DNA of 64,000 bases from Eledone cirrhosa (GCA_964016885.1 OZ024765.1:6696001-6760000); one strand, 5' to 3'; counted from the first letter of the stretch, positions 13,191-19,884 are shown. The notes: a model not told the origin generated them from the sequence alone. Made by a program: numbers and translations.

Positions 13191-13284
13191 ATGAACTGGC
13201 AATATGCTAATCTCTACATATTCTTATTTATAGTGTATGGGTTCTTTCTAATAATATGTCTATGGCTCCTGGCAATGTTTAAAG
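13191..13284 (+). CDS. Repeat-protein gene exon 1 (signal anchor/TM)
   Basis: [40 protein letters not shown] donor. Confidence 0.6.
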
Positions 13285-16200
13285 GTAAACTCCCTTCTCA
13301 TTTTTATTTTATTTTCGTTTATTTTTGTTTCTTTGTTTCTTTTTGTTTTAATCGATCTGTTGTTTGTTGAATTTCTATATTATTGTTATTGTTGTTGGTG
13401 CAGTGGTGGTGGAGGTGTTATTGTTGTTGGTGTAGTGTTGGTGTTGGGGCTTGTGATGTTGTTAGGAGTGGTGGTGTTACTGGTGGTGGTGGTGTTGTTG
13501 TTGTTGTTGTTGAGGGTGATGGTGGTGGTTGTGTGGACTGTGGTGGTGTTGGGGCTTGCGGTGGTGTTACTGTGGGTTATGGTGGTGGTGTTACTGGTGG
13601 TGGTACTGGGGAGGAGTGTTGTTGGGGTGCGAGTATTACTGGGGGTTGAGTTGTTGGTGTTGATGGTGGTGTTGTGGGGGGTCTTCGTGGTGGTGGTGAA
13701 GTTGGTGGTGTTGCTGTTGTTGCTTGTGTTGGTAGTGTTGGTAGTATTGCTAAGGGTGGTGGTGGTGGTGGTGGTGTTATTGGTGAAGTTGGTGTTGTTG
13801 TTGATGGTTGTACTATTGTTATTAGTATTGCTGTTGCTGTTGTTATTGTTGCTGCTTCACAATCACGAGGCCCTGAATTTGATCCCACTACATGAAAATA
13901 AGTTACCAGTCATATACTGGGGTCTATATAATCTACAATACCCCCTCCCCCTGCTCTTAAATCTGAGTCCCTGTATTTATTTATAGTCTATGCTAAATAT
14001 AAGGCCGTCACCCCTGTTTTCATTAAATGAACTAATCCTAGTGTCTATGGACTGGTCTGTGTTATATATAAGCCTGTCACCCCTCTATTTCAGTGTATGG
14101 ACTGGTCTGTGTTATATATAACCCTGTCACCCCTCTATTTCAGTGTATGGACTGGTCTATGTTATATATAAACCTGCCACCTCTCTATTTCAGTATATGG
14201 ACTGCTCTGTGTTATATATAACCCTGTCACCCCTCTATTTCAGTGTATGGACTGGTCTGTGTTATATATAACCCTGTCACCCCTCTATTTCAGTGTATGG
14301 ACTGGTCTATGTTATTATATAAACCTGCCACTTCTCTATTTCAGTATATGGACTGCTCTGTGTTATATATAACCCTGTCACCCCTCTATTTCAGTGTATG
14401 GACTGGTCACAGTAAAATACCTCCAAGCACTCCACTTATCAGAACAAAAGAAAGAAGGTAAATGCCATCTCTAAAATATGGCCTCCATCACTAACACCAC
14501 CATCACAACCACCACCACCAGAACCATCACCAACATCACCACCACAACCACCACCACCAACACCATCACTGCCATCAACATCACCACCACAACCACCATC
14601 ACCAACACAACCACTATCAACATCACTACTATCACCCCTACCACCACTACTGTCACACTCCAATCACCACCACACTCCAATCACCGCCACACTCCCACCA
14701 GCACCACAATATGATTATAATCATCATCATCATCGTTTAATGTCCATTTTCCATGCTAGCATAGGTTAGACAGGTTGTCAAATTAGAGGCAAGTTGGATC
14801 AGGTGACTCTGTCTTGCTCATATAGAACTGTTTCTGACTAGGTTTCTACAGCTGGGTGCCCTTCCTAACACCAACAAACACCACATTTACAGTGTGGACT
14901 GGATGCTTTTTGTCATGGCATCTACATGACCACTTTACAGTGTGCTGGGTGCTTTTTGTCGTGACACCTACATGACCACTTTAATGCGTGGGCTGGGTGC
15001 TTTTAGTCGTGACACCTATACAACCACTTTACAGTGTGGACTGGGTGCTTTTAGTCATGACACCTACACGACCCCTTTACAGTGTGGGCTGGATGCTTTG
15101 TGTCGTGACACCTACAAAACCACTTTACAGTGTGGACTGGGTGCTTTTAGTTGTGACACCTACACAACCACTTTACAGTGTGGACTGAGTGCTTTTTGTC
15201 ATGACACCTACACAACCACTTTACAGTGTGGACTGGGTGCTTTTAGTCATAACACCTACACAACCACTTTACAGTGTGGACTGGGTGCTTTTAGTCATAA
15301 CACCTACACAACCACTTTACAGTGTGGACTGGGTGCTTTTAGTCATAACACCTACACAACCACTTTACAGTGTGGACTGGGTGCTTTTAGTCATAACACC
15401 TACACAAGCACTTTACAGTGTGGACTGGGTGCTTTTAGTCATAACACCTACACAACCACTTTACAGTGTGGACTGAGTGCTTTTAGTCATAACACCTACA
15501 CAACCACTTTACAGTGTCGACTGGGTGCTTTTAATCATAACACCTACACAAGCACTTTACAGTGTCGACTGGGTGCTTTTAGTCATAACACCTACACAAG
15601 CACTTTACAGTGTGGACTGGGTGCTTTAGTCATAACACCTACACAACCACTTTCCTGTGTGGACTGGGTGCTTTAGTCATGACATCTAAACTAACACTTT
15701 ACAGTGTGGACTGGGTGCTTTTAGTCATGACACCTATACTACAGTGTGGGCTGGGTGTTTTGATAATGCTGATGATGATAAATAGTAATACTGATAATAA
15801 CAACATTGTTGAAATGATTTAATTTATTTTAGATGATGGTGAGAAGAGAGAAGATGAGAGCTGTGATTGGCCGAAACAGGAGAAGAAGAAAAAGAAGAAG
15901 AAAAAGCACTGTGAAGGGCCAAAGCAAAATGGACGTGACAGCTTTAGACAAGAAGCTCCAGATGTGACTGGATGCTGTGATCACTGGCAGGCTTCACTTG
16001 TGACTGGAGGCTATAGACCACAAGCTCCAGGTGAGAGTGACAGCTGTCATGAGCAGCAGGTTGCAGATGTGAGTGACAGCTACAAATACAAGGCCCCAGC
16101 TGTGAGTGGAGGCTATAGACAACAAGTTCCAGATGAGAGTGACTTCCACAGACAACTGTCTCCAGATATGACTGGCTGCTGTGATGAACGGAAAGCACTA

Positions 16201-19200: not shown

Positions 19201-19884
19201 TTCTATGGATTGAAAGTGAAAAGAAATGGGACCTCAGAACTCATCAGGAGCTTTGAGTCGAGAAGCAAAAGGAAAGACAACTTCATCAAAAAATGGAACA
19301 GGAAGAGCATTACTTGTGTCACAAAACTAGTGGATACATTTGAAAATCTTGCCGGTAACAAAAACCGCCATTACACACACATACCTTTACATCCATACTG
19401 AAAGAAAATCTGATTGGGTTTGTTTTCTTACTAGAATTTTTTTCCCATACGTTGATGCGTATGTGTATATGTGCACATGTGTGCAAATGCATACACTTAT
19501 ATGCATGAGTATATAAATACGCAAACACAGACATACATTCACACAAATATACATTAGGACAAACATACACAAATACACACATGGATATACATGCACTCAC
19601 AACACAGTGTAGGTTTTTCACCATCCCCTTCCTTCCTTTTACACACACATACATTCACGCAGGCAGCAGATGTAAAAAGAGAGGAGTAGTATGAGGTAGT
19701 CAAACTACCCCTCTCTCTTTACGTGTTGTGACAGAATCGCAGAAATTTATATATAGATTGCAGAGGATTCTACCTGTTAGAAATCAACACAAAATGTTGG
19801 CAGTATGTCTATCACTTCAAGGGATTGCTTTTTATTTATTTATCTTTTTCAATAACAGACTGCAAGGCAGATGAAGGAAAATAG
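13191..19884 (+). CDS. Uncharacterised N-terminally membrane-anchored acidic Cys/Ser/Gln tandem-repeat protein (about 680-705 aa)
   Basis: Exon 13191-13284 (hydrophobic 31 aa, phase 1) splices in frame to 15833-17529/17577 (phase 0), then 19126-19354 and 19859-19884, or reads through to the stop at 19401. All phases agree. Confidence 0.65.
14005..14410. repeat. 50-bp tandem repeat, about 8 copies
   Basis: cagtgtatggactggtctgtgttatatataaccctgtcacccctctattt. Confidence 0.93.
14885..15760 (+). repeat. 48-bp minisatellite derived from the RTE 3' UTR
   Basis: Unit accactttacagtgtggactgggtgcttttagtcataacacctacaca; similar arrays at 4800-5290, 30670-30920 (-), 38050-38540, 54360-54700 (-). Confidence 0.93.
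15833..17577 (+). CDS. Repeat-protein gene exon 2 (11-aa [15 protein letters not shown] repeats)
   Basis: tttattttag acceptor; about 1.7 kb open frame despite diverged repeat units; phase-0 donors after 17529 (GTGAGT) and 17577 (GTAATT). Confidence 0.8.
19126..19401 (+). CDS. Repeat-protein gene exon 3 (basic C-terminal region)
   Basis: tttatccacag acceptor, phase 0; [14 protein letters not shown]...[11 protein letters not shown]...[12 protein letters not shown]; possible donor after 19354. Confidence 0.65.

Follow-up and report, generated by a model that had tools for sequence, protein, structure and literature searches.

The window analysed here is a stretch of 64,000 nucleotides from Eledone cirrhosa (GCA_964016885.1 OZ024765.1:6696001-6760000) on contig C26 of the 3.0-Gb genome, and its subject is a plus-strand gene that the original prediction placed at 13191-19884 as an unrecognised spliced gene for a membrane-anchored, acidic, Cys-rich tandem-repeat protein. 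We propose, with a probability of about one half, that this gene encodes a single-pass membrane anchor with a disordered spacer and a cytosolic tail that would bind actin filaments, tethering membrane to actin. Our analysis supports a real, single-copy, spliced and lineage-restricted gene with a hydrophobic N-terminus; the earlier preference for a gene over a satellite thus finds backing in the orthologues, which support the spliced-type exons, the lineage restriction and the hydrophobic start. The locus is likely the orthologue of the uncharacterised Octopus bimaculoides LOC106882763 and O. sinensis XP_036370445. On sequence comparison, relatives have been seen so far in octopods alone, and they already stand in databases as uncharacterised; new here are the reading of a tandem actin-filament motif, the corrected exon structure and the neutral expansion of the spacer.

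The homologue search with the C-terminal exon, which the original prediction had proposed, returned two clusters of three isoforms each, one from O. bimaculoides (LOC106882763; XP_014789029-31) and one from O. sinensis (XP_036370445 / XP_029652718 / XP_036370446). This basic exon, exon D, is the last coding exon (19126..19401), begins at 19126 as had been predicted, ends in the stop TGA and shares 48-49% identity with the two Octopus proteins; the identity between those two is 85%. The Octopus orthologues share with the Eledone protein the N-terminus, exon B, degenerate 11-residue units, both motifs described below and the C-terminal tail. They differ in the middle part, which comprises 153-157 residues, is near neutral and holds about six degenerate units, whereas that of E. 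cirrhosa comprises 581 residues with a net charge of -78, 44 units and a run of eight lysines (K8).

Conservation is concentrated in the hydrophobic start of the protein and in the end of exon D, where two stretches resemble the actin-filament motif V1-L4-F8-E9 (VxxLxxxFE, Lifeact/ITPKA type; PMC13364712). Motif 2, VTKLVDTFE (19318..19344), is an exact match, retained in all three species with nine of nine positions invariant. Motif 1, TSELIRSFE (19231..19257), has Leu4, Phe8 and Glu9 with Thr at position 1, and eight of its nine positions are invariant. Together, 17 of the 18 motif columns are invariant, compared with 26 of 72 in the rest of exon D (three species; Fisher p = 5e-6), and the 20-residue linker between the motifs is conserved at only 5 positions. 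This putative actin-filament-type pair, the most conserved part of the C-terminal exon, had been passed over previously. Of 200000 shuffles of exon D, 94 contained the exact motif and one combined it with a second LxxxFE; the corresponding counts for whole-protein shuffles were 291 and 18 of 50000. A scan of local DNA in six frames (367,948 codons) gave two exact matches, motif 2 and one other, and the pair was seen once, at this locus. Two residues before motif 1, contigs from two sequencing runs read C for A at site 19226 while those of a third read A; the site is probably heterozygous and would change Asn to Thr.

In the published description (PMC13364712), the motif lies in a disordered context, has an affinity of 2-12 uM and requires positions P1 and P8; the same paper marks as validated the cortactin and HCLS1 motifs, which also carry Thr at position 1, gives the FGD4 motif as VSDLISRFE, which is close to motif 1, and reports tandem spacings of 34 residues in SORBS1, 33 in SORBS2 and 30 and 32 in XIRP1. 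The spacing from motif 1 to motif 2 is 29 residues. The Eledone protein thus resembles the SFM proteins of that source (Lifeact/ABP140, ITPKA, FGD4, cingulin, SORBS1/2 and XIRP1) in carrying VxxLxxxFE in a disordered region, in the conservation of the motif above its flanks and in a tandem arrangement about 30 residues apart. It differs from them in that no homology extends beyond the motif, and in that its motifs are preceded by a membrane anchor at the N-terminus and by a repeat spacer. The core residues, the disordered setting and the conservation of the motif above its flanks, the sequence-level features tested, were all found here, and the protein likely works like the SFM proteins. Since PMC13364712 reports no motif-positive orthologues of the validated proteins in Mollusca, an actin motif in this gene would be of independent origin. 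In the proposed binding mode, actin's cleft between subdomains 1 and 3 would receive each motif as a short helix; having two of them may provide avidity or join two subunits or two filaments.

The predicted anchor is encoded by exon A (13191..13284), in which the 31-residue hydrophobic frame at 13191-13283 is present as first described. Exon A is identical to both Octopus X1 proteins at 29 of 31 residues, and at 17 of 17 from 13233, and its maximal 19-residue hydropathy is 2.85. An internal acceptor at 13234 would reduce it to a 51-nt exon of phase 1-1. Next comes exon B (14395..14457; 63 nt, phase 1-1), which supplies the basic flank 3' of the anchor and matches both Octopus proteins (tblastn, 15 of 20 residues identical); the original prediction missed it and spliced the hydrophobic exon directly to exon C. 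The uncharged N-terminal run measures 30 residues in the X1 type and 17 in the X2 type, where one Lys and further apolar residues follow, with hydropathies of 2.3-2.85. Over 15 residues, the charge is 0 to -1 on the N side and +2.5 to +3 on the C side in all six exon-B-containing forms from three species, a pattern that, together with long apolar runs, favours an N-out/C-in orientation according to PMC2139883. The charge pattern and the long apolar run favour an uncleaved type III (N-out/C-in) anchor, as which the N-terminal run and its basic C-flank would insert, and this orientation would put spacer and motifs on the cytosolic side, where actin lies. Skipping of exon B would give the 15-residue flank behind the anchor a charge of -4, and the orientation could invert. 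The annotated Octopus isoforms that start after the hydrophobic run are consistent with a cytosolic tail and may be soluble versions of the protein. Of the earlier suggestion of a single-pass or secreted protein, the hydrophobic N-terminus stands, while the conserved actin-filament-type motifs suggest that the tail is cytosolic and not secreted.

In layout, the protein is reminiscent of p180/RRBP1 (and kinectin), which, according to PMC3362647, carries a luminal N-terminus that is very short, one membrane helix, a Lys-rich stretch, tens of tandem 10-residue repeats and a cytosolic tail. In p180, however, the repeats are basic and the tail is a long coiled coil, whereas the Eledone repeats are acidic and the tail consists of short motifs. 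Membership of the p180/RRBP1-kinectin family was rejected, as there was no Pfam or structure-database match and the features of the family were absent; the likeness is one of layout alone.

All splice junctions, from exon U or the X1 start through exons A, B, C and D, were inferred from predicted protein models of Octopus, and in the resulting homology layout on the window the exons are open and in phase with the two orthologues. The predicted products are 725 residues (X1 type, starting at the ATG at 13191) and 715 residues (X2 type). The four-exon model first put forward does translate without an internal stop (697 residues), but besides lacking exon B it needs revision at its start and its last exon. 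A second start is likely at the ATG at 7783, in exon U, whose coding part (7783..7795; M-V-D-P and the first base of the next codon; donor CTG/GTAAGT at 7795) would begin an X2-type isoform; it agrees with the way the Octopus X2 isoforms begin (GMIDP/MIDP) and, with its frame open, would splice to the acceptor at 13234. The 133 kb upstream hold 1181 phase-1 donor candidates, of which exon U has the top last-four-residue score (21, the next being 10); the match rests on GMVDP against GMIDP/MIDP, because the 13-residue score is low. As AG precedes exon U, it may instead be a 15-nt internal exon of phase 1-1 (7781-7795), and more upstream exons may exist. Exon C (15833..17577) comprises a charged start, the K8 run (15883-15906), the repeat spacer and a Ser-rich end, and lies in an open frame of 590 codons (15823-17595) that bears out the earlier account of K8 and 10-12-residue repeats. 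Between the two in-frame donors that had been offered for it, 17577 gives a gap-free alignment with each orthologue (scores 49 and 47), whereas 17529, which scores 14.5 and 25.5, is retained as an alternative. The splice proposed at 19354/19859 fares worse: the match to the Octopus proteins extends through the GT at 19355 as far as the stop at 19401, so the proposed last exon (19859..19884), although in frame, is without homology support and is probably 3' untranslated or flanking DNA.

The exon B acceptor has an unusual neighbourhood. A 50-bp minisatellite (14046..14408) carries copies of this acceptor and the first bases of the exon, of which the last copy alone is in register with the orthologues; each of the seven acceptor-like sites upstream leads to an early stop, and the spliceosome must therefore use the last one or skip exon B. 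Exon B and the short form of exon A (13234-13284) are both symmetric with phase 1-1 and both start with TGTATGG, a hint of an old exon duplication. The genome holds one occurrence each of exons A and D. Contigs from three public runs of one sample, compared over 15740-18570 and 19101-19990, show 0 differences over 15740-16181, 16327-17087 and 17361-17663 and 0-1 difference over 19101-19516, with no contig cover at 17260-17354 and 19791-19990. These contigs run through exon-intron borders and therefore behave as genomic DNA; since they match exon C over most of its length and exon D throughout, assembly error is an unlikely source of the open frame.

The spacer consists of 44 repeat units of 10-12 residues (15964..17430; 489 residues: 31 units of 11, nine of 12 and four of 10), acidic and predicted to be disordered. 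In nucleotides, the length of every unit is a multiple of three, and the block contains no stop in the coding frame compared with 36 and 79 in the other two plus-strand frames. Joining the 43 distinct units in a minimum spanning tree gave 191 base changes, which created no stop where about 8 were expected (P ~3e-4). Single-base codon changes comprise 28 silent and 111 replacing ones, with no excess of silent changes (p 0.86); the resulting ratio of replacement to silent substitution (dN/dS) of ~1.2 is a rough count, since the tree joins paralogous units. The units thus keep frame and openness but not residues. When both Octopus proteins were scanned with a profile built on the 31 eleven-residue units, each yielded six consecutive degenerate units whose score exceeded that of every one of 5000 shuffles, so the repeat is old and was expanded in E. 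cirrhosa. A 143-residue piece of the repeat gave a mean pLDDT (predicted local distance difference test) score of 41.6 and no confident fold, and a FoldIndex-type score, a proxy for disorder, is -0.20 for exon C, -0.22 for exon D and -0.27 for the orthologues. Exon C is predicted to act as a disordered spacer that depends on its length more than on its sequence; by a rough polymer scaling-law estimate, its end-to-end distance would be ~17 nm here against 8.5 nm in Octopus.

Several points weigh against the proposed anchored, actin-binding protein. The motif p-values are post hoc, because the motif was spotted after the alignment had been seen, and the conservation comes from three sequences, two of them the closely similar Octopus proteins. 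A profile match alone is a weak filter; in PMC13364712, the first-round structure filter kept 59 of 539 such matches. Modelled helices at residues 36-43 and 48-74 of exon D span both motifs with low confidence (mean pLDDT 55; predicted template modelling score 0.18). The orientation is drawn from the charge rule only, and within 25 residues the C-side charge in E. cirrhosa drops to +0.5. Cleaved signals have hydrophobic runs of 7-15 residues (PMC2139883), to which the 17 residues of the X2 type are near. The first 14 X1 codons overlap the acceptor region of exon A, which means that splicing, not the protein, may account for the conservation there. The roughness of the dN/dS count tempers the reading of the spacer as neutral. 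Lastly, the tail after motif 2 (19345-19398) is also conserved, at 14 of 18 residues, so a larger element with a different partner may be what is constrained. Modelling exon D residues 28-82 in complex with a divergent actin gave no verdict either way, the score being 0.03 against a mark of 0.34 in a run without alignments or folded controls and with a tool unproven for peptides. That actin is encoded by an intronless, intact gene of 376 residues (L013:1495-2625, on contig C3 near 145.35 Mb), which is 76-79% identical to the four conventional actin exons aligned and is possibly a retrogene.

One alternative that takes up the conserved tail keeps the membrane anchor and the disorder but lets the conserved C-terminal helices and tail bind something other than actin, for example a sorting adaptor or a scaffold. 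All three species have a Tyr-x-x-hydrophobic pattern in this tail, a pattern that can act as a sorting signal, and short amphipathic helices bind many partners. We consider this rather unlikely, because two motifs with L4, F8 and E9 in register, one of them with the exact V1, are rare by chance, and because the poorly conserved linker is what separate short motifs would be expected to show. It is also possible, though improbable, that the protein binds or bundles actin chiefly in soluble form in the cytosol: the main product would start after the hydrophobic run or skip exon A, and the anchored isoform would be minor. For both Octopus species the annotation includes X3 isoforms without the hydrophobic run (maximal hydropathy 0.6 in that of O. 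bimaculoides), and the symmetric 51-nt form of exon A could be skipped in frame; yet nowhere is the protein more conserved than in exon A, which is present in four of the six annotated Octopus isoforms.

The idea carried by the original prediction, an acidic, Cys-rich protein that faces the lumen or is secreted and binds Ca2+ or other metal ions or forms a disulfide scaffold, appears doubtful. The negative charge of exon C, its 38 Cys and five N-x-S/T sites would suit such a role, as would the flank of -4 produced by exon B skipping, which would favour the opposite orientation, and also a possible cleaved signal. The Cys-Cys periodicity that had been read from the repeats did not hold up, however, as 18 of the 44 units have no Cys, 16 have one and 10 have two. 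Neither acidity nor Cys-Cys pairs are conserved in the orthologues, whose middle parts have net charges of +2 and -2, five to six Cys and zero to one CC pair, and this makes a conserved metal-binding or disulfide function unlikely; the lack of amino-acid constraint on the units and of a confident fold likewise sets the repeat apart from the class of Cys-rich metal-binding proteins or disulfide solenoids. Searching a 50%-cluster library with exon C gave 28 weak matches, and the nine inspected were unrelated repetitive proteins. The data are better explained by a disordered spacer than by a scaffold that binds metal or forms disulfides. Least credible of all is a decaying gene or a satellite open by chance. 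Minisatellites in the window also give long open frames (248 residues at 14930-15676), and the exon B acceptor has been multiplied by one; set against this are the intact, in-phase exons, the single copy and the absence of stops among the unit changes.

Returning to the anchored, actin-binding protein, a more elaborate version may be sketched, to which we attach a low probability: an octopod-only membrane-actin tether with independently evolved Lifeact-like motifs, whose reach would be set by the copy number of a neutral 11-residue spacer and whose small symmetric exons would switch between anchored, soluble and possibly inverted forms. Exon A would then serve as the anchor and exon B would set the flanking charge, the acceptor of the latter being the one multiplied by the minisatellite in E. 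cirrhosa. If actin binding is true, the gene would be a molluscan, independently evolved case of a recently defined short actin-filament motif, with actin motifs borne by a membrane anchor, an unusual layout. The octopods compared differ fourfold in spacer length, which would then serve as a natural experiment on tether length against membrane-cortex or organelle-actin distance. If actin is not bound, the gene product would be ordinary, a disordered, lineage-restricted protein whose coding minisatellite has expanded.

The automatic names given to the Octopus proteins (uncharacterized, semenogelin-2-like and zinc finger CCCH 18-like) are misleading, as no Pfam match above cut-off was found in the orthologues or the window exons and the names are thus unbacked. 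The CCCH zinc-finger assignment of the O. sinensis protein was rejected for want of such a Pfam domain, weak Tetraspanin and PFF1_TM scores on the same species were set aside as hydrophobic-segment noise, and a sperm or testis role suggested by the old 'semenogelin-like' name was dropped, there being no evidence for it. Homologue searches gave two matches for exon D, the same two among 7997 scored candidates for the Octopus alignment and none among 7993 scored candidates for exon C; because these searches are word-based and cover limited scored candidates, absence outside octopods is weakly shown. A solved-structure search gave no match under E 0.5, a protein atlas search came back blank and Rfam had no matches in 7000-21000. 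Full-text searching on five identifiers of the gene found no paper, most octopus expression and proteome supplements being outside its reach, and on the O. sinensis name it found only an unrelated plant paper; the identifiers are absent from the readable supplements of PMC9712504 (three files) and PMC6341066 (six files).

Weak matches to the repeat (31-36% identity) occur on contigs C21 and C12; those on C21 near 18.31 Mb (L006, L007 and L012) include two overlapping open frames of 221 and 247 residues, 31-32% identical to the repeat, and are probably compositional. Simple repeats and minisatellites are abundant in the window. A dispersed 48-bp minisatellite family lies at 4795-5259, 14866-15736, 30670-30885, 38050-38532 and 54367-54724; as 48 bp is a multiple of three, such arrays yield spurious open frames of up to 248 residues. 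On the minus strand, exons of a WD40-repeat gene, which we take to resemble TBL3/UTP13, span 50646-57615, and an open frame of 798 codons (59738-62134) has reverse-transcriptase and PHD-finger matches and belongs to an element of the long interspersed nuclear element (LINE) type, with related pieces upstream in L026 and L032.

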